Source: an uncultured Spirochaetota bacterium (lineage in GTDB: Bacteria > Spirochaetota > UBA4802 > UBA5550). Taken from it: a stretch of 64,000 nt of DNA. The stretch spans positions 160,001 to 224,000 of the forward strand of contig CAWHAA010000005.1 of the NCBI GenBank assembly GCA_963827275.1, given 5' to 3'. Positions within the stretch are counted from its first letter, which is position 1. Each line of letters begins with the position of its first letter. Of the stretch, positions 19,002 to 29,087 are shown one piece after another. Both the position numbers and the translations under genes were made by a program. The notes below the pieces were generated by a model. The model saw nothing but the letters and a program-made list of their open reading frames with translations, was not told where the DNA came from and ran no database searches.

Positions 19002-21032
19002 TTATTCCTTCCCGCCGCCGGATCCCTTTTCCTGGCTGCCGAGCTGGTATTTCATCCACTGCTTCTGCGAATTTGTCTGGCTGATCGCCTGTTCCATCGC
19101 GGCGAATTTCCTTTTCAGCTTGTCCTGGTATGCTTTTATGTGCTCTTCTTTCTGCTTGATGTTCTCATCCGCAAGCTTGATGGAGTTTTCCTCGAGGTCG
19201 ATCTTCGCCGCGATGATGTTCTTGCCGGACCCGACATACGGCTTCAGGACGTACGCGAGCTTGACCGCCATCCCGTTGTCGGCCTTGCCGTCGCCGTCGG
19301 AATCAAAGCCGAAGAACTCCGCTACCCCGTCCGGGTTATCGGAGATCGTTTTTCTCAGCAGGGCCTCGTCCACCTTGAGCTTGCCGCTCTTGATCGTCTC
19401 CCAGTCGGCGTTGATGGCGCCGGTCGAGACTCCGATCTGCGACAGCATCCTGATCGGCTTGTCGGAGGGGCTCACGTAGGCGTCGGTAATCGTTGACTGC
19501 AGGATGCTCTGCAGCCGCATCAGGGTCATGTCGCCCACAAACAGGCCGGACTGGGAGAGCGCCTTTTCGAATTCCCCCGGCTTTTCCGATATCGCCGCCT
19601 TGGTGAGGTCGCGCTGAAAATCCAGGTACTTGTTATATGCATCCACGAACTTCTTGATCTTATCAACAGGCGCGTCCGCGTTATGCTCGATCCTGAGGCC
19701 TATTTCGTAGTCGGCCACGCGCTTGAGGGTGAGGTCCACTCCCCTGATGACATCGGCCAGGTTGTCGTTCCGGTCGCGGGTGACCTCGACGCCGTCCAGG
19801 GACAGCCGCGCGTCCTTCGGGGCGCCGATCACGTTCTTCATCGCGTACCAGTTCATCGCCTCCTTCGGGGTCGCAATACGCACGTTGGCAACGTCCATGG
19901 CGCCACTGTTGCAATAGAGGATGATCTTGCTTATGGCGCCCTTCTTGAAGTCCCTGCCGGCCTCTATCTTCGCCGTGCCGCTCGCGTCTTTCCCCAGCGG
20001 ATAGATGCGTTCCGTGCGCCGGCCCTTGTCCATCGACACAAGCCCGATCCCGATCAGGCTGTCAAACACCGCCTGGTCCTCTTTCTTTCCCTCGCGCTTC
20101 CGCTCGACGTTGTAGCCTTCGAGTATTATTCCCTTTATATTGATCTTCTCTTTGGGGCCCAGCCTGAGGCGCCTGGGGACCCCGAAATCGTCGCCCTTCT
20201 GCCCGCTGTAATTGACGTCGAATTCGATCATGGTATCCGGCTGGAGCGCGATCTCGACCGGGAGCGCATATTCGCGCCACACGAGGCCCTGGAGGCTCAC
20301 CGATCTCCCGCCGTCGCCGACCCGGATGCTGCCGTTTTCGGCGCCCGCTTTTTTTTCACCCATGTATGAGGTGAAATACCGCGCGTCAAAGGAGACCGCG
20401 ACCTCGGTTTTCCCCCCCTGCGCGTTGCCGTCCACGAGCCCGATCTTCGTGAGGAGGTCTTTGTCGCCGGTGAGCCTGATCTCCCCTTTCTCACCGGTCT
20501 TCTTCGACTGCAGGGTGAGCACGTAGGCGCTCCCGTCCTTGCGGATATATGAAGAAGCCACGAGCTCGGACGCCGTCTCCCTGATCTTTTCTTCAAGGTC
20601 CTTCAGCGTGCCGCCCTTGAAATTTATTGCCTGCGTTGCACCGTCAACCTCGATGGTGAACGTTCCCGCCGGCAGCGTTTCCTTCTCCTCCACCGGGTCC
20701 GTTGACACCTTGTGCGGCGAGGCCAGCTGCAGGATCTTTATCTTTTTGTCGCCGGTGTCGGCCTTCGACCCCGCCTTGGCGTCAAGGGCAGAGCTGTCAG
20801 AGGAAACCGCCTGCTTGTCGCTGAACGAGGAGCCGAAGCCGTAGAGGTCACGCGCAGAAGAATTGACGTCTTCAAGATACCTGCCCAGGGCCTTGAGACC
20901 TTCCTTGCGGTTTCCATGGTTCCTCTTCCTTATTTCAAGCTGCTGGATCGGCCTGGATTCGACATTGACCAGTTTTTCTATGATGGCATCGGTATCCATA
21001 CCTGATGCCATGCCGCTCATCGATATCGGCAT
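19002..21032 (-). CDS. fliD: Flagellar filament cap protein
   Basis: SGMASGMDTDAIIEKL N-terminus, IKKFVDAYN, LSQIGVSTG, KRKFAAMEQA C-terminus. Confidence 0.95.
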   Translation of the reverse strand: MPISMSGMASGMDTDAIIEKLVNVESRPIQQLEIRKRNHGNRKEGLKALGRYLEDVNSSARDLYGFGSSFSDKQAVSSDSSALDAKAGSKADTGDKKIKILQLASPHKVSTDPVEEKETLPAGTFTIEVDGATQAINFKGGTLKDLEEKIRETASELVASSYIRKDGSAYVLTLQSKKTGEKGEIRLTGDKDLLTKIGLVDGNAQGGKTEVAVSFDARYFTSYMGEKKAGAENGSIRVGDGGRSVSLQGLVWREYALPVEIALQPDTMIEFDVNYSGQKGDDFGVPRRLRLGPKEKINIKGIILEGYNVERKREGKKEDQAVFDSLIGIGLVSMDKGRRTERIYPLGKDASGTAKIEAGRDFKKGAISKIILYCNSGAMDVANVRIATPKEAMNWYAMKNVIGAPKDARLSLDGVEVTRDRNDNLADVIRGVDLTLKRVADYEIGLRIEHNADAPVDKIKKFVDAYNKYLDFQRDLTKAAISEKPGEFEKALSQSGLFVGDMTLMRLQSILQSTITDAYVSPSDKPIRMLSQIGVSTGAINADWETIKSGKLKVDEALLRKTISDNPDGVAEFFGFDSDGDGKADNGMAVKLAYVLKPYVGSGKNIIAAKIDLEENSIKLADENIKQKEEHIKAYQDKLKRKFAAMEQAISQTNSQKQWMKYQLGSQEKGSGGGKE

Positions 21033-21413
21033 ATTAAAGCCCTCCCTTGCTTATGTTGGCACTGTTTCTGCATACTTTTCCTGCATCACTATTATCGACA
21101 TAATGTTGAAATTTAATGAGATTATTATAATAAAAACGAAAAATTTATTAACGCGGATAACCGGTGGGATCTCACCTGAAGCAGTAAATTATTGGCCGAT
21201 AACACTCAAAAAATGCTCAAAATTCATGAAATATTGAAGGTTTTTAACCTGGCACGCAGTTTTACACATAAAAAATGGAGGGAATTCCTCTGTAGGAATT
21301 ATTGCTTTCAATAGGCGGTTATTTCTGAAAGAGCATAGGTATCACCCGGGGGCATACCTGTCCCCTCCGAGCAAAAACAGCCTTTTTTTACCGAACCCGA
21401 GCCGCGATATCAG

Positions 21414-21770
21414 TTATCGCGATTCGTCAACCAGCATGCCCAGGAAATCCTGGATGTGCTCAAGGAGCTTGATCGCTTCCTTCGAAGGGATCTCCCGCAC
21501 CACCTCATTGGTCTCGTTATTCATGACCTTGACGATAATCCGCTGGGTCTTTTCATTAAACGAGAAGGACATCCGCTCATGAATGTCGCTCACCCCTTTG
21601 TTCAGCTGGTTCACCATGTCAGATATCTCACTGGTGGTGAGTTCCCTGTTGTTCTGCGCTGAAGACTTCGACACCGATTGCGCCGCGGCGTCCTGATCGG
21701 CCGTCTCGGTCTTCCTTGCGTACCTGCCGATCGCATCGATCGGTTCGTTTGTAACGCTCTTGATGTTCAT
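21414..21770 (-). CDS. flaG: Flagellar protein FlaG
   Basis: IIVKVMNNETNEVVREIPS..GMLVDE; lies between flagellin and fliD. Confidence 0.92.
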   Translation of the reverse strand: MNIKSVTNEPIDAIGRYARKTETADQDAAAQSVSKSSAQNNRELTTSEISDMVNQLNKGVSDIHERMSFSFNEKTQRIIVKVMNNETNEVVREIPSKEAIKLLEHIQDFLGMLVDESR

Positions 21771-21818
21771 CTGTTAACCTCCATGTTAACGGGATAACTC
21801 TCTCCCAACCTCCCTTTT

Positions 21819-21883
21819 AAAAAACAGCCCCTCCCCGGCGTCCGGAACCGGTAGCGCTCCCGTGCCGGCGACCGGAGAGGGAC
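21819..21883 (-). terminator. Intrinsic terminator-like hairpin after the second flagellin
   Basis: Minus strand GTCCCTCTCCGG..CCGGGGAGGGGC followed by TGTTTTTT. Confidence 0.6.
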
Positions 21884-21928
21884 GGGGCGGTCCGCACTGC
21901 GAGGACGCCCCGTGTGAAGTAATGATCC

Positions 21929-22777
21929 TCATTCAAACAGCTTCATGATCAGCTTCGGCTTCGTGTTGGCCTGAGCCAGCATCGCCGCACTTGTCTGAAC
22001 AAGAATCTGGTCCTTTGTGAATTCAACCATTTCAGCCGCCATATCCGCGTCGCGTATCCGGGAATCGGCGGACATCATGTTCTCATATGTGTTTCGCCAG
22101 GGCATTTATCGTATTTTCCAGCCGGTTATAATACGCTCCAAGGTCTGCCCTCTGCCGATTCAGCCTGTCAAGGGCCGTATCGACATACCCTATCATCGCG
22201 TTTGCGCCGGCCACGGTTGATATCGTCCGCTTGTTGTTCCCCTCATTTACCAGGTTGAAGGCTTTCGAGCCGACGGTAGCGATATACACCCTGATCCGCT
22301 GATTCTGATTGGCTCCAACATGAAAAAACATGCTTCCGGCCTTGCTGTTCTTCGCAGAACTCTCCCCGGAGCATCTTCATCCTGTTGAATTCGGCGGAAG
22401 TGGCGATGCGGTCGATCTCGTCCACAAGCTGAGATACCTCAACCTGAATCTGGAACCGGTCGCTGGCTGGAATAAATTCCGTTCGCCGACTGGATCGAGA
22501 GGACTCTGATCCGCTGCATGATCTCGTTAAGCTGCTGGTATGACCCCTCCGCGACCTGGATAAAAGAGAGCCCGTTCTGGGCGTTCTTTTCAGCCTGGAC
22601 CAGGCCGTTGATCTGGGTACGCATCTTTTCAGATACGGCCAGACCGGTGGCGTCATCACCGGCACGGTTGATCAGCTCGCCGGACGAGAGCTTTTCCATG
22701 CTCTTGTCCAGACGGTTCCCCACCTCCGTCAATTGCCTGCTTGCGAATACGGCGCTCATGTTGTGATTGATTCTCAT
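21929..22777 (-). CDS. flaB: Flagellin (FlaB-type), three apparent +1 frameshifts
   Basis: [50 protein letters not shown], spread over four reading-frame segments (shifts near 22467, 22356, 22092). Confidence 0.9.
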
Positions 22778-23041
22778 TGGTTCCCTCCCTTGTTGTGGTC
22801 CGGGCCGCATTGTTGTGCGACACGGCCCGTGTTTTTCAACCGCCCCATCATGGTGCGGCGGGACCGCCCCGCGGTCCGAAGGTTGTCTCCTTGTCGTGCC
22901 GTCCTGACTGCCCATAATCATGACAACACCGGCGCCGGAAGTTCCGACAGCCGGTGATGCCCTCCCCGCATCACCGGCCGCCGGAGCAGCCGGGCGCAGG
23001 ACAGTCGTTCCGGCATCCGGAGGGATGAGAATCGCGCTGAA

Positions 23042-23053
23042 TTTTCAAAGAAC
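23042..23053 (-). promoter_or_regulatory. boxA-like motif between the flagellins
   Basis: Minus strand GTTCTTTGAAAA, matching the rRNA-leader boxA form. Confidence 0.5.
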
Positions 23054-23090
23054 TTTGTTTTCTTTACTCTCGAGATCTGCCTCGGCACCG

Positions 23091-23943
23091 TTACGCACCG
23101 AGTAATTTTAATACTGATTGACCCTGGATATTGGCCTGCGCGAGCATTGCCGCGCCGGTACGAACGAGGATCTGGTTTTTTGAAAAACCGACCATCTCCT
23201 CGGCCATGTCGGCGTCGCGGATCCGCGATTCGGACGCCTGCGTATTTTCATACGCATTCATGAGCCCCTTCGCGGTCATCTCGAGCCTGTTGAAATACGC
23301 CCCGAGATCAGCCCGCTGTTTCGCAAGCCTCTGCAGTGCAGCATCCATGATCCCGATGGAGTCATTGGCACCGCCGGGGGCCGACAGCGAGATCAGCGAT
23401 CTTGCCGGTGCCGTCACGGAACTTGAGGGCCTGTGCCGTCATCGTCCCGATATACACCCGCTCGCGCTGGTCCTTGTTGGCCCCGAGGTGAAACCACATG
23501 CTCGCCTTGGGATTGGTCCGGGAATAGATCCCCGTCAGTACTTTAAACTTGTTAAACTCTGCCTGAGACGCGAGCCTGTCAACCTCATCGACAAGGGCGG
23601 AGACTTCCACCTGTATAAGCTGCCGGTCTTCATTTGAATAAATACCGTTTGCAGCCTGCACAGACAGAACCCTGACGCGCTGGATTATGGAAGAGGTCTG
23701 GTCGAGATACCCTTCGGCGGTCTGTATAAACGACATACCGTCTTCGGTGTTCCTCTCGGCCTGCCGCAGCCCCTGGATCTGTGTCCTCATTTTTTCAGAC
23801 ACGGCCAGTCCGGAAGCGTCATCTCCCGCTCTGTTGATCCTCAATCCGGATGAGAGTTTTTCCATGTTCTTCCCAATCTCCCATTCGTTGAACTTGAGTG
23901 ACCGGTTGGCATTGATCGCGCTCATGTTGTGATTAATAATCAT
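23091..23943 (-). CDS. flaB: Flagellin (FlaB-type), one apparent +1 frameshift
   Basis: [31 protein letters not shown]; second frame [24 protein letters not shown]; shift near 23400. Confidence 0.93.
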
Positions 23944-23985
23944 TTTACACTCCTTTGTGCGAAAAAGTATTCTGGCTTCCATGCT
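23944..23985 (-). promoter_or_regulatory. Candidate CsrA-binding sites in the flagellin 5' UTR
   Basis: GCATGGAAGC and ACAAAGGAGTGT (ANGGA in small stem-loops, the second overlapping the SD). Confidence 0.55.
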
Positions 23986-24142
23986 ACCCGGTTTCGAGGG
24001 CGTCGGAACCGGATGAATACCACCAGTAAAAAAGGGCTGAAGCCTTACGCAACAGCCGGGGTCAGAGACATTCCAGGCTTGCATTTGGGCATATACAAGA
24101 CCGGAATACTCTTTTTACAGAATAGCCTTCCCAGTTTGAAAC

Positions 24143-24155
24143 GTTTTCAAAGATC
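24143..24155 (-). promoter_or_regulatory. boxA-like motif in the flagellin leader
   Basis: Minus strand GATCTTTGAAAAC, preceded by a strong hairpin. Confidence 0.45.
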
Positions 24156-24390
24156 TCGTCGAGTAAAGTAGGGACACGTGTCCCTACTCGAATTTTCGCC
24201 ACCTTTGGCTGCCGGATTGAGGACGATAGGAGGTTGTTATAATATATTATTTTCGTTTATTTGAAAATATGCTTAAATATCTACAAATAATATCTATATA
24301 TCTAATTTTTTGGATTTTTTATCAATTTTTTTAAGTTTTTTAATAAATAATAAAAAATCAGGAAAATAAATAGAGCAACATTAGTCAGTC

Positions 24391-24796
24391 AACAACCGAC
24401 CTTCCGTGTCCTCCGTGGTAAAACATGCAAACAGCACTTTCCCGGGCATGCAATATTCACCACGGAGGGCACCGAAGTCACGGAGCGCTTGCGGCTTATT
24501 TTCATTTGATCGCTCATTCACACTGGAGGCAAATAATCATTACATTTCGGGCAGAATTGAAAGACGCGGCGGCAATTAACAACCGATGCTCCGTGTCCTC
24601 CGTGGTGAAACATAAACACCGCATTATCCCGAGCATTACAATATTTGCCACAGAGGTCACCGAGGTCACGGAGCGCTTGCGGCTTATTTTCATTTGATCG
24701 CTCATTCACACTGGAGGCAAATAATCATTACATTTCGAGCGGGATTGAAAGACGCGGCGGTAATTATCAACCGACCCTCCGCATCCTCCGTGGTGA
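24391..24796. repeat. Tandem 187-188 bp repeat (about 2.2 copies) built from alternating inverted REP-like motifs
   Basis: Units start at 24391, 24578 and 24766; CTCCGTGTCCTCCGTGGT alternates with its near reverse complement. Confidence 0.9.
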
Positions 24797-24872
24797 GTAT
24801 CCGAAAAGCATCCTCCAGAGTTCTTCCATCATGGAAAACACCTCTCAATTGTCATGGGAGCATGAAATTATA

Positions 24873-24901
24873 TTGACGATACCGCTGGAAACAGGTATTA
24901 T
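24873..24901 (+). promoter_or_regulatory. Sigma70-type promoter of panB
   Basis: TTGACG-N17-TATTAT. Confidence 0.6.
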
Positions 24902-24947
24902 CCTGTTATAGCTGCGCAGTATCAATCCATAACAATACGAGGACATC

Positions 24948-25784
24948 ATGAGACTGACCATTTCGTCGATCATGGAAATGAAACAGAAGAAGCAGAAGAT
25001 AGCCATGCTCACCGCGTATGACTTCTCGTTTGCGCCGGTACTCGACGCGGCTGGCATGGATATCATACTGGTCGGCGACTCCATGGCAAACGTGGTACTG
25101 GGCATGGAATCGACCACGGAAATAAGCCTCGACGAAATGATCAACCACAGCAGGGCGGTGGTCAAGGGTACGGAGCGCGCCCTGGTCATCGGCGACATGC
25201 CCTACTGCTCCTGCCAGGTGGACCCCGGGGAGGCGCTGCCGGCCGCACGGCGGTTCGTTGAAGAGGCCGGCTGCCAGGCCGTCAAGATAGAGTGGTTCGA
25301 CCGCGCGATCGAAGTGACGGAGCGCATAGTGCGCAGCGGCATCCCGGTCATGGGGCATATCGGCTTCACCCCGCAGACGGCCGACAAGCTCGGCGGCTCA
25401 ATCGTCCAGGGAAAGGACATCGACACGGCAAAGCGGCTCGTCGAACAGGCAAAGGCGTTTGAAGCTGCCGGCTGCTTCAGCATCGTCCTGGAATGCGTCC
25501 CCTGGCAGCTCGCGGAAATCATAACCGGCCTGCTGAAGATCCCCACGATGGGCATCGGCGCCGGCGCAGGCTGCGACGGGCAGGTACTGGTATTGAACGA
25601 TATGCTCGGTCTCTTCAAGCGCTTCAAGCCCAAGTTCGTAAAAATTTACGCTGACATCTACAGCGCCTCGCTGGAAGGGGTGCAGAGATACATGGATGAA
25701 GTAAAAAGCGGAGCCTTCCCCTCTGAAGCCGAGCGCTTTTCAATGAAGGAAGAGGAGTTCCAGAAGCTCAAGCAGCTTCTCTGA
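24948..25784 (+). CDS. panB: 3-methyl-2-oxobutanoate hydroxymethyltransferase
   Basis: MLTAYD, ILVGDS, GHIGFTPQ, GIGAGAGCDGQVLV. Confidence 0.97.
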   Translation: MRLTISSIMEMKQKKQKIAMLTAYDFSFAPVLDAAGMDIILVGDSMANVVLGMESTTEISLDEMINHSRAVVKGTERALVIGDMPYCSCQVDPGEALPAARRFVEEAGCQAVKIEWFDRAIEVTERIVRSGIPVMGHIGFTPQTADKLGGSIVQGKDIDTAKRLVEQAKAFEAAGCFSIVLECVPWQLAEIITGLLKIPTMGIGAGAGCDGQVLVLNDMLGLFKRFKPKFVKIYADIYSASLEGVQRYMDEVKSGAFPSEAERFSMKEEEFQKLKQLL

Positions 25785-26173
25785 CGATCCTCCACCGCAC
25801 CGGCCTCATGCGGCTCGCGTGGTTCATCGGGCGGTTTTCAGGATTTTAAAAAAAAACTGCTCATTTACAACCGGTAGCATGGAGAAAAAATGGGGGGGAT
25901 ATGAAACATTGTTGTTTGGGTAACACATTCATCCACTTCTGTTTCAAGGTGAAGTTGTTTATGCCACAAGTTGTAAAGAGCAGGATAACATTCTATCTCT
26001 CCCGCACTGATTGCTCATATGCGTGTCTGAAATGATTGTTAACGCTTGTAATATACCCATACTATGAAACAAAAAGCAATCCCTGAAAGTCCTACACGGA
26101 GGTGGGAAAAAACTCGATTATTTTTGTAGGTGAATTCCCCTACACGACTGCTGGGGATAAAAACGAGGTGAAA

Positions 26174-26830
26174 TCAGCGCGCCTGGTCGCCCGACTGGCT
26201 CCATTTGACGGCATAGAGCGCCAGTTCGCTCGAATCCTTTAATTTCAGCTTATCGATGATACGCGAGCGGTACGTTTCAACGGTCTTAACGCTGAGGGAT
26301 AGTTCCTGCGCGATATGGCGGTTTGACAGCCCCCTGCCGATGCGCTGGAACACGTCCATCTCCCGGTTCGTGAGGCTGTCGAGCGGCGAGCCCGCCGCGT
26401 CCGCGGGCAATGCGAGGAGCCTGCCCAGGAGCCTGTCCTTCAGCACATCGCTGACATAGATCTTCCCTTCGAGGATGTCGTGCAGGGCCTTCACCACCGT
26501 GTCCATCGATTCCTTTTTCATGATGTAACCCCGCGCGCCGGCCCTGATCGCGCGCTCCGCGTAAAAGTTTTCATCATGCATCGACAGGATGAGCACGGGA
26601 ATGTCGAAGCGGGACTTGACCGCGGCCGCAAGCTCGATCCCGCCGGCCCCCTTCATGGAGAGATCGGCAATGATGATATCCGGCGCGCGCTCATTGATGA
26701 GCCTGATTGCGCTCTCGGCGTCCTCCGCGTCCCCGCAGACGACGAAATCATCTTCGCCGTTGATAAACGCCGCGAGTCCCTGCCGCACCACGGGATGATC
26801 GTCAACGATGAGTACTTTCTTCTTTGCCAT
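26174..26830 (-). CDS. NarL/FixJ-family response regulator
   Basis: VDDHPVVRQG receiver domain plus LTNRE..LSVKTVETYR LuxR HTH. Confidence 0.95.
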   Translation of the reverse strand: MAKKKVLIVDDHPVVRQGLAAFINGEDDFVVCGDAEDAESAIRLINERAPDIIIADLSMKGAGGIELAAAVKSRFDIPVLILSMHDENFYAERAIRAGARGYIMKKESMDTVVKALHDILEGKIYVSDVLKDRLLGRLLALPADAAGSPLDSLTNREMDVFQRIGRGLSNRHIAQELSLSVKTVETYRSRIIDKLKLKDSSELALYAVKWSQSGDQAR

Positions 26831-26948
26831 GCATCCGACCTGTTTATTGAAAAACAATGGAGCAGAAACTGCCGGTGTCAATACATTTATTCGTCGCCCG
26901 CGGCCTGTCCGGCCGCATGCCGTCGTCGAACCGGGGATCCCCGCCGCG

Positions 26949-29087
26949 CTACCGCCTCCAGACGCACGATACCGTGGCGCCCCCGTCACTGTTGCCGCCT
27001 ATGCGTATCGACGCGCCGATGGCGTTCGCCCGGTACTGCATGATCCTGAGGCCCAGGCCCCTGGCACGCTCGGATTCGGGGGGTATCCCCGTGCCGTCGT
27101 CCCTGATGTCGAGATGGATTTGCCCTTTTTTATTTCTGAGCGTGATGCCGATGTGTTCCGCCCTGCCGTGCTTGATCGCGTTATTCACCGATTCCTGCAC
27201 GATATAATGGAACTGGGTCTCGACGATGCTGTCATTGACGTACAGGTCCGCATCATATTCCAGGGTGCATGAAACAGGAAACATGCCCTCGATTCCCCTG
27301 ACGAGCCGGGCGAGCGCGACAATGATTCCTCCCGAATCCACTTCGACCGGGGAGAGGCCGCGGGAAAGGAGCCGCGTGTGGTCTTTGGCCTCGTTGATGA
27401 GGGCGGACACCGCGCGCGCTTCCTCGGCCTCGGGGAGCGACTTGTTCGCGAGCTTTTTAGCCAGTGACTCGCACAGGAAGCCGGTGCCGGTCAGTATCTG
27501 CCCGAGGTCATCGTGGAGGTCGCGCCCGATCCGCTGCTGCTCCTTCATGCTTATTTCCAGGACCTCGCGCTCGAGGTACTTGCGGTCGGTAATGTCCGTG
27601 AACACGGCGACAAAGCCCGAGAAGCCCCCGCTGTCGCCCGCCAGGGGACGGAGGGACACGATGGTGAAGACCTTTTCACCGGCACCCGTCCGCAGGGCGA
27701 TCTCGTACTGGATCTTCCGCGCGCGTTTCTTGAAAAAGGCCGTATTCCGGAAATTCTCCCGGTCGTCTTCGTCAATATGGTCCATGACCGGGCTGCCGAG
27801 TATCTCCCTCTTCGTCCGGCCCACCATTTCACAGAACCGGTCATTCGCGAACGTCACCTCGCCCCCGTCGCCGACCCGCACCATGCCGTCGCTCATTGTC
27901 TCAACGAGAACGCGGTACTGCTGCTCGCTCCTCCGCAGGGCGCTCTGCGCGAGCTTCCGCACGGTGATATCCTTGAGGACCGCGTGGAGCACCGGCCGGC
28001 CCGCGATCGGGATGGCGGTCACCGATACGTCAACGGGGACCTCCCGCCCGTCAAGGGAGCGGTGCACCCATTCAAAGCTGAGGCTTTCAAGTTCATACAC
28101 GAAGTCGTAGATCTCGGCCGTGCGCTCAAAGCTGTCGGTGCCGTCCGGTTGAGCGGGCGGTGAAAGCTCCTCCATCCTTTTTCCGAGGAGCCGTTCTTTG
28201 CTCCCCGCCCTGAACAGATGAAGGGCCGCGCTGTTGCAGTCGATGATCCTTTTATCCTCCAGCAGCAGCTGTGCGTCAGCCGACTTCTCAAAGAGGTGCC
28301 GGAACTTCTCCTCGCTTTCGCCGAGGGCTATCTCAATCCGCCGCCGCTCGGTAATGTCCTGGCAGATCGACTGGCATTCTATCACCGATCCCTGAATGTC
28401 GCAGATGGCCTGCTCCGTGCACCTGAGCCATCGCTCTCCCCGCGTGGTCTGCAGCGAGTGCTCATAGGTAACGAGCCGGTTCTCACCGGCGAAGGCGGCG
28501 AAACCCGGGACCATCGATTCCCGCACCGCCCCGTGCGCAAGGCCCAGGATGCTCGTCCCGATGATCCGCTCCCTGTCGATATCGAAAAAGTGGCAGAACT
28601 CTTCGTTTGCGTAGGTTATCGTGTTCGTGTCCGGCAGGTACCGGCAGATCATGACCGGCATGTTCTCGACGATGCCGCGGTACAGCTCCTCGCTCCTTTT
28701 AAGCCTTGACTCCATCTTGTGGCGGTACAGCGCGAACTCAACGGCGATATGCAGCTCGCTGACATTAACCGGCTTCAGGAGAAAACCGTATGGGCTGGTC
28801 ATCCGCGCCCTGCCGATCATATCCTCATCGTTATAGGCGGTCAGGAAAATTACCGGCACATCGTACGAGACGGCGATGCTCCCGGCGGCATCGATACCGT
28901 CCCCGGGACCGCTGAGCACAATGTCCATGAGGACAAGGTCGGGGTTTGTTTCCGGGATGGATTTCATGACTTCCTCGAGCGAGGACGCCACGAACGGGAC
29001 GTCATACCCGTATCCCTCGAGCACGGCCTTCATGTACATGCCGGACACGACGTCGTCTTCCACCACCAGTATTCGGGGGCTTCCCAT
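26949..29087 (-). CDS. Hybrid sensor kinase REC-PAS-PAS-PAS-HisKA_3-HATPase
   Basis: N-terminal receiver, three PAS/PAC (DIT.R), RDLHDDLGQ, QESVNNAIKH, DDGTG, GLGL. Confidence 0.93.
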   Translation of the reverse strand: MGSPRILVVEDDVVSGMYMKAVLEGYGYDVPFVASSLEEVMKSIPETNPDLVLMDIVLSGPGDGIDAAGSIAVSYDVPVIFLTAYNDEDMIGRARMTSPYGFLLKPVNVSELHIAVEFALYRHKMESRLKRSEELYRGIVENMPVMICRYLPDTNTITYANEEFCHFFDIDRERIIGTSILGLAHGAVRESMVPGFAAFAGENRLVTYEHSLQTTRGERWLRCTEQAICDIQGSVIECQSICQDITERRRIEIALGESEEKFRHLFEKSADAQLLLEDKRIIDCNSAALHLFRAGSKERLLGKRMEELSPPAQPDGTDSFERTAEIYDFVYELESLSFEWVHRSLDGREVPVDVSVTAIPIAGRPVLHAVLKDITVRKLAQSALRRSEQQYRVLVETMSDGMVRVGDGGEVTFANDRFCEMVGRTKREILGSPVMDHIDEDDRENFRNTAFFKKRARKIQYEIALRTGAGEKVFTIVSLRPLAGDSGGFSGFVAVFTDITDRKYLEREVLEISMKEQQRIGRDLHDDLGQILTGTGFLCESLAKKLANKSLPEAEEARAVSALINEAKDHTRLLSRGLSPVEVDSGGIIVALARLVRGIEGMFPVSCTLEYDADLYVNDSIVETQFHYIVQESVNNAIKHGRAEHIGITLRNKKGQIHLDIRDDGTGIPPESERARGLGLRIMQYRANAIGASIRIGGNSDGGATVSCVWRR

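Follow-up and report, generated by a model that had tools for sequence, protein, structure and literature searches.

The mRNA of a spirochete flagellin gene carries the boxA element of ribosomal RNA transcripts twice, once in its leader and once past its stop codon; this reuse of boxA on flagellin mRNA is real, order-wide and in part phylum-wide. The sequence makes it likely that the flagellin-1 mRNA is made with transcription machinery thought to be reserved for rRNA. In our reading, to which we give a probability of roughly 0.6, a Nus complex would be loaded at the first boxA, leader and trailer would close into a helix around the coding sequence, and the complex would be reloaded at the second boxA. 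The window analyzed is a 64,000-nt stretch of contig CAWHAA010000005.1 from an uncultured Spirochaetota bacterium, whose genome (4.1 Mb, 11 contigs) has a single rRNA operon. The original prediction had placed two complementary arms and two boxA-like motifs around the first flagellin gene, and all four are found where it described them on the minus strand (Table 1).

Table 1. Features of the flagellin locus, in positions of the window
Feature	Position	Strand	Basis
Sigma-28-like promoter (TCAA, 16 nt, GGCGAAAA)	24193..24220	-	sequence; fliA motif match in genome
5'-terminal hairpin, boxB-like position, abutting the 5' arm upstream	24167..24188	-	palindrome
Outer arm, 5' strand	24151..24168	-	covarying complementarity with trailer
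boxA1	24143..24155	-	one base off 16S-23S spacer boxA; one base off 16S-leader boxA
Inner arm, 3' of boxA1, pairing with first bases past stop	24131..24143	-	weak in this genome
GGA-containing hairpin and Shine-Dalgarno, flagellin 1	23949..23985	-	conserved in relatives
Flagellin FlaB, first gene	23091..23943	-	NCBIfam flagellin matches; stop at 23091
Outer arm, 3' strand, 12 nt past stop at 23091	23062..23078	-	complementary to leader
boxA2, 3' of flagellin-1 stop, heading the 313-nt flagellin-2 leader	23042..23053	-	identical to 16S-leader boxA over 12 nt
Anti-start strand, complementary to flagellin-2 Shine-Dalgarno and start codon	23019..23033	-	swap test
Long conserved hairpin with GGGAGG loop, flagellin-2 leader	22944..22984	-	fold, conservation
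Flagellin-2 Shine-Dalgarno and start (anti-start target)	22769..22788	-	complementarity
Flagellin FlaB, second gene	21929..22777	-	NCBIfam flagellin matches
flaG, likely co-transcribed	21414..21770	-	NCBIfam FlaG matches below cut-off
fliD, filament cap	19002..21032	-	NCBIfam FliD matches below cut-off

On the minus strand two tandem flagellins are followed by flaG and fliD, and the same arrangement with near-identical trailers is present in other Spirochaetota and Leptospirales records. The only minus-strand terminator-like site listed from flagellin 1 to flaG is inside the flagellin-1 coding sequence, which leaves flagellin 1 without a terminator of its own. An extra base at 23399 shifts the flagellin-1 frame here. 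It is most likely an error of assembly, since it is missing from the RNA-library contigs of runs X1, X2, X5 and X6 and the frames of the remaining 27 protein-picked orthologues are intact, at 849-855 nt. Compared with public contigs, the flagellin-2 frame has one-base insertions at 22096, 22355 and 22468, and a further one lies in the gap at 22847; the insertions that break both flagellin frames are most likely errors of long-read assembly. The promoter layout is repeated upstream of flagellin in relatives and resembles the mapped Treponema denticola flaB2 promoter, TTAA/CCGATAA, as reported there (PMC9481697). Transcription would then start at about 24186-24185, approximately 35 nt 5' of boxA1, and the hairpin at the 5' end of the transcript is predicted in most genera, with varying sequence. 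A second motif, CGA(A/G)YA, at 24190-24185, begins 10 nt past the -10 element of the sigma-28 promoter and is kept in all printed genera; it may be a second -10 element or a start-site signal. Further upstream of the promoter, 24386-24800 holds two direct copies, 88% alike, of a palindrome-rich unit of about 188 nt that has a single weak match elsewhere in the genome. Tandem short repeats of the TAATCG type are found upstream of sigma-28 flagellin promoters (contig C8 of this genome, about 106870-106840, and relatives); the loose pattern is present in 34 of the 53 type-A loci, a count made without a chance control, and is possibly a regulator site.

The rrn boxA of this genome lies 90 nt before 16S and again before 23S, there with one G-to-C change, and the two flagellin motifs match it. 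Among order genomes with an assembled 16S start the rrn boxA is exact in 10 of 11 and a one-base variant in the eleventh, while distant families have looser variants in the same place; in genomes of Spirochaetia type the rrn leader has a looser boxA than the flagellin does. The motif is rare: nine non-coding copies were found in 1.34 Mb, two in rrn, three in flagellin leaders (the two of the window and one from contig C8) and four at other sites (C5:137559(+), C1:190127(-), C8:549595(+) and C10:470(+) of this genome). Within 330 nt upstream of genes it occurs in eight of 3287, three of the eight being flagellins, and both counts rely on a crude gene set; the binomial chance of three in five flagellin leaders is 8e-8, for a motif picked post hoc. 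Genes for NusA, RNase III (rnc), an inositol monophosphatase (SuhB-like) and FliW were found by profile search, and nusB, nusG, rho, csrA and fliA by short motif only. Both copies are on the sense strand, and boxA1 comes soon after a 5' hairpin and a start that is placed from the promoter motif.

Conservation was followed in 53 orthologous loci from 27 genera and seven families. Of these, 28 were picked by protein (this genome included), one more was likewise a protein pick and 24 came from boxA1 matches, so that boxA1 is not an independent finding in the latter 24; five loci were left out (L034 and L036, another paralogue; L094, missed by the leader filter; L095, at a contig end; L096, no intact frame picked up). 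With one variant base allowed, both copies are present in all 53. Taking one locus per genus, G(-2), TCTTT and AAA of boxA1 are each conserved in 27 of 27 genera and those of boxA2 in 26-27, while the ten columns flanking boxA on each side agree in just 9-18 of 27. On the scale of the phylum, 93 of 301 genomes have a boxA 40-300 nt upstream of a flagellin start, and three have the reverse-complement control there; inside the order it is 53 of 55 genomes, outside 40 of 246. The 301 include genomes irrespective of whether they carry the flagellin start pattern, so the non-matches among them do not show absence, and the matches in family f15 (9 of 53 genomes), which mostly overlap the base of the GGA hairpin, are not taken as established boxA sites. 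In the named genome collection the pattern of flagellin end, stop and boxA, which would miss the enteric boxA form, was found in at least 120 records; 114 of the matches listed are titled spirochetes and the remaining ones are two spirochete-type loci and four chance matches. Two of the latter are inside one enzyme coding sequence, presumably PurL, and two are at non-flagellin sites, and all four were rejected. One spirochete-type flagellin locus (L209) is in a Thermoclostridium-titled record, probably a misbinned contig. For 80 of the matches listed long flanks were taken, and in 77 of these a second flagellin follows within 600 nt. Related genomes are not independent. The paralogue on contig C8 keeps boxA both behind another flagellin and alone behind a promoter, which indicates that boxA is part of the leader of the downstream gene.

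The prediction that both motifs are boxA-like thus stands, on their identity to the genome's own rrn copies, rarity, strand specificity, a core invariant over 27 genera and the promoter-proximal position after a hairpin, and the conservation in relatives that it called for is present; the motif is very probably a working boxA. A different, flagellum-specific RNA-binding protein could instead bind a boxA look-alike, with the helix merely protecting the ends of the mRNA. The motif is strongly confined to spirochete flagellins, and in distant families flagellin boxA varies less than rrn boxA, as such a protein would have it, but within the order the identity with rrn boxA is exact, including the same spacer G/C variant, and NusB would presumably bind the motif anyway. 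We consider this alternative very improbable.

The original prediction described the arms as a 16-bp stem with a small internal loop. As a duplex this is correct: 8+8 bp are separated by a 2x1 internal loop, the energy is -22.4 kcal/mol, and comparison with 200 dinucleotide-shuffled trailers gives p=0.01. When the whole predicted mRNA of 1159 nt is folded, the inner eight pairs have probabilities of 0.74-1.0 and the outer eight 0.07, 0.17, 0.47, 0.89, 0.97, 1, 1 and 1; the outermost two or three pairs compete with the 5'-terminal hairpin, so that about 13 of the 16 pairs form the stable helix. The inner arm reaches 11-20 bp in several related genera, and in most relatives the helix runs on 3' of boxA1, which places boxA1 inside it. 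The first half of boxA1 is often paired, and its GAAA is paired in at most three of 13 genera.

To see whether leader and trailer fit their own partners better than those of other genera, cognate and swapped pairs were compared, at first for the outer arm of the original prediction and, after co-folding had been seen, in a window widened to both arms (Table 2).

Table 2. Cognate and swapped pairing energies of leader and trailer
Window	Group	Cognate (kcal/mol)	Swapped (kcal/mol)	Permutations
Outer arm	own family (13 genera)	-15.3	-10.0+/-0.8	0/100000
Outer arm	other families (14 genera)	-11.5	-9.0+/-0.7	42/100000
Both arms	own family	-29.3	-17.2+/-1.5	0/100000
Both arms	other families	-15.2	-12.4+/-0.7	11/100000

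Against shuffles the helix reaches p<=0.05 in 35 of 53 loci (control window, 4 of 53). Counted by genus, this level is reached in 15 of 27, with 11 of 13 in the own family and 4 of 14 elsewhere. All four Watson-Crick pair types occur at each of positions -7 to -4 in the 13 genera, counts which lean towards pairing since they are taken from predicted duplexes. The expected covariation of the arms is therefore clear in the own family and weak in several others, and the helix probably forms in the own family. In families f2 and f5, most of f7 and genus g16 it is weak or absent while both boxAs persist, which points to boxA as the constant element and the helix as a secondary elaboration; in family f6 the trailer pairs with the 5' hairpin and does not straddle boxA. 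Two further lines were set aside. A search for a single helix without constraints, in 159 thinned flagellin genes, gave a weak signal (p<0.03 in 15 of 95 boxA-bearing and 2 of 64 boxA-lacking genes), and leader-trailer pairing around flagellin 2 has p=0.03 here and is not conserved (17 loci, 5240/20000 permutations).

Complementary arms of this kind could also be DNA inverted repeats for inversion by a recombinase, the alternative named in the original prediction, or a product of chance. Palindromic hexamers in the arms do inflate the apparent complementarity in this genome. The perfect, conserved repeats in both orientations that mark an invertible switch are not what is seen, however: all 53 loci have one orientation, the arm sequences are wholly different between genera and share no recombinase core, and G-U pairs make up 57 of 690 predicted helix pairs and occur in 26 of the 28 loci of the own family. 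The listing for the contigs of X1 and X6 contains no joint, arm-to-arm (circular) or other; 29 joints of the other contig set lie outside its listing. Chance is excluded by the rarity of the motif in the genome, the helix swap test and the phylum count against the reversed motif, and inversion or chance together are hardly credible.

It had further been proposed that the message is excised as a stem-closed unit. In that explanation RNase III cuts the helix like a pre-rRNA stem and releases a monocistronic, stem-closed flagellin-1 mRNA with its own half-life, which sets the flagellin ratio. The gene rnc is present, flagellin 1 has no terminator of its own, the own-family helix straddles boxA like the pre-16S helix, with stretches of 11-21 bp when small loops are allowed, and the Escherichia coli rrn complex is described as boosting co-transcriptional RNase III cutting (bioRxiv 2026.03.17.712431). 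On the other side, the helix is short and irregular, with uninterrupted runs of 8-13 bp in the own family (5-13 bp in the others) against 28 bp in the boxA-containing pre-16S helix; it is weak or missing in the lineages named above despite both boxAs; and some RNA-library contigs span the 3' arm and boxA2 (X1, 22748-23941; X5, 23019-23231 and 23024-23248, from related organisms). These data are contigs assembled from seven runs and cannot show RNA ends; contigs that cross the 3' arm indicate that uncut molecules or DNA exist and do not imply absence of cutting. A contig of X1 ends at 24178, some 7 nt within the predicted transcript, and 24286-27500 is uncovered; this agrees with the predicted start but, as one run of uncertain type, is given no weight here. 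The helix encloses a flagellin coding sequence and no ribosomal RNA, and an Rfam scan of 21000-26000 gave four weak matches, all far below the gathering score (best E 0.57). On the tests run it is not a member of the family of pre-rRNA processing stems, and the arrangement appears to work like an rrn leader or spacer. That RNase III cuts here at all is doubtful, and that such excision is what the arrangement is for is unlikely. In the windows tried no pre-23S helix of this genome was recovered. The 23S gene is followed by a terminator-like hairpin (C2 of this genome, 225368 onward), with no 5S-like sequence evident by eye.

The preferred reading, loading of a Nus complex at both boxAs, gains a second long-range helix in the flagellin-2 leader, which the first description had missed. 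An anti-start strand lies 8 nt past boxA2 and about 230 nt from its target, and each boxA thus adjoins the 5' strand of a long-range helix. The pairing, at -18.8 to -31.8 kcal/mol, is present in all 48 loci with a second start located in the fetched DNA (none was located in five of the 53). Cognate strands beat swapped ones across 22 genera (0/100000 permutations), and in one genome (G021) a codon and its anti-start partner are both changed in a compensatory manner. The ratio of the two flagellins is more likely set through this conserved strand than through excision. The GGGAGG-loop hairpin of the same leader is likely a CsrA site or a Shine-Dalgarno decoy, and the GGA hairpin and Shine-Dalgarno of flagellin 1 are likely CsrA sites; a nearly identical site overlapping the Shine-Dalgarno is given as the putative CsrA site of Leptospira biflexa flaB2 (PMC8668096).

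The boxA copies could also have a negative effect, as at E. coli suhB, where bound Nus factors block translation and favour Rho termination, or be NusG pause signals (TTNTTT past a hairpin) that allow time for CsrA and for RNA folding; boxA2 does lie beside the anti-start strand. It is reported that boxA can promote termination (PMC12360218) and that TTNTTT drives NusG pausing in Bacillus subtilis (10.1101/2022.10.28.514324), a motif contained in boxA2 of 24 of the 27 genera. In boxA1, however, it is present in just 15 of 27, and G(-2) and the GAAA tail, not needed for pausing, are nearly invariant. A suhB-type boxA would be within about 50 nt of the start codon, whereas boxA1 is 179-241 nt away in the printed loci and boxA2 about 265 nt. 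We regard this explanation as improbable.

Since the motifs match rRNA boxA and the arms covary, it is likely that a Nus complex of the rRNA type is loaded twice on the flagellin operon. The transcript would start from the sigma-28-type promoter about 35 nt before boxA1, where NusB/E would bind and a Nus complex (NusA/B/E/G, SuhB) could keep the 5' end near RNA polymerase, so that approximately 1.1 kb of long, structured and probably CsrA-repressible mRNA would be made fast and Rho-resistant. The emerging trailer would then pair with the arms flanking boxA1, closing the flagellin-1 mRNA and partly masking boxA1, and boxA2, emerging 8 nt later, would load the complex anew for the untranslated 313 nt that follow. 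There it may help the adjacent anti-start strand to find and mask the flagellin-2 ribosome site, and it would carry transcription on to flaG and fliD. The likely outcome would be plentiful flagellin-1 mRNA with protected ends and a flagellin 2 kept low by RNA structure. In lineages with long arms RNase III may also cut, a step that the model does not need. A still fuller version, with a complete rRNA transcription-and-folding machine in which looping closes the helix, the complex is handed to boxA2, the switch mutes flagellin 2 and RNase III matures the message, is somewhat unlikely; under it, flagellin and ribosome synthesis would compete for NusB, S10 and SuhB, which would link motility to growth. 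Leader, coding sequence and gap show no C-richness (C/G 0.84-0.98), so that nothing in them points to a need for Rho protection. Judging from a study of the complex (PMC12360218), a complex that sequesters NusG-NusE would also break the coupling of ribosomes to polymerase, on an mRNA that is heavily translated, which speaks against the model.

Related leaders with boxA and a closing helix occur on other flagellin paralogues across the phylum. The type-B genes have a closing helix of 10-11 bp in 7 of 7, with different pairing beside boxA in its place in L109; this helix is nearly invariant, which makes the swap test uninformative (2054/20000). In Spirochaetia-type second genes (n=29) the signal is weaker (29/20000). 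The second flagellin pair of this genome (C8:105834, minus strand) and loci L098-L109 have a hairpin and then a boxA between the genes, and the downstream gene has its nearly invariant 10-11-bp leader-trailer helix just before the terminator. In Spirochaetia-type tandem flagellins (L114-L192) a TATAAT-like element lies a few bases past the first stop and about 20-30 nt before boxA, which suggests an internal sigma-70 promoter feeding the boxA leader.

The boxA/Nus complex has been described as a filter that separates rRNA from mRNA transcription (bioRxiv 2026.03.17.712431). If the reading is true, paired boxAs on a highly translated mRNA throughout the order, together with the boxA leaders of other spirochete classes, would be a natural test of a general RNA-looping role and of whether the Nus complex works alongside translation. 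It would likewise give a mechanism, open to experiment, for the proportions in which spirochetes make their several FlaB proteins, which with FlaA stand at approximately 1.0:0.7:0.6:0.2 (FlaA:B1:B2:B3) in T. denticola (PMC9481697).

What is new is the reuse of rRNA-leader architecture on a protein-coding flagellin mRNA; apart from rrn, the boxA uses named in the literature consulted are suhB, hisG and CRISPR arrays. As had been supposed, no earlier description of a boxA or a leader-trailer helix on flagellin mRNA was found in a search of mainly freely readable literature, and the T. denticola flaB paper does not mention boxA (PMC9481697). A published boxA survey was limited to gammaproteobacteria and to 50 nt of starts, and it names two isolated flagellar genes, neither of them a flagellin (PMC5725501). 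Antitermination of CRISPR arrays and the suhB boxA of gammaproteobacteria share with the flagellin locus a boxA outside rRNA (PMC5725501; PMC13753749), but CRISPR RNA is untranslated, and at suhB the boxA lies close to the ribosome site and favours termination; paired copies bracketing a coding sequence are not described in the available parts of these reports. CsrA-FliW control of flagellin mRNA in spirochetes, Bacillus and Campylobacter is similar in its GGA hairpin, its site overlapping the Shine-Dalgarno and the presence of csrA and fliW (PMC9481697, PMC8668096). To these the flagellin locus adds a long leader, a closing helix and an anti-start strand. In the icaR mRNA of Staphylococcus aureus and the hbs mRNA of B. 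subtilis, leader-trailer pairing across the coding sequence affects nucleases or translation. There the Shine-Dalgarno region is paired and no boxA is known to be involved, while the flagellin helix is 200 nt from the Shine-Dalgarno and built around boxA. The closest known system is the rrn leader and spacer, from which the flagellin locus differs in enclosing a translated coding sequence, in its sigma-28-type promoter and in a helix that is shorter, interrupted, lineage-variable, unpaired at GAAA and only putatively processed. In B. subtilis a boxA of nearly the same consensus, AUGAUCUUUGAAA, comes after a short 5' hairpin and is bound by NusB (PMC13753749), and the E. coli complex is reported to tether the boxA leader to polymerase, loop the RNA, bridge the halves of the helix and double the speed of transcription (bioRxiv 2026.03.17.712431). 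The flagellin locus has in common with rrn the lineage's same boxA, a hairpin and then a boxA soon after the start (PMC10250234; PMC13753749; bioRxiv 2026.03.17.712431), a second boxA past the 3' arm and before the next unit, and a long-range helix that includes boxA.
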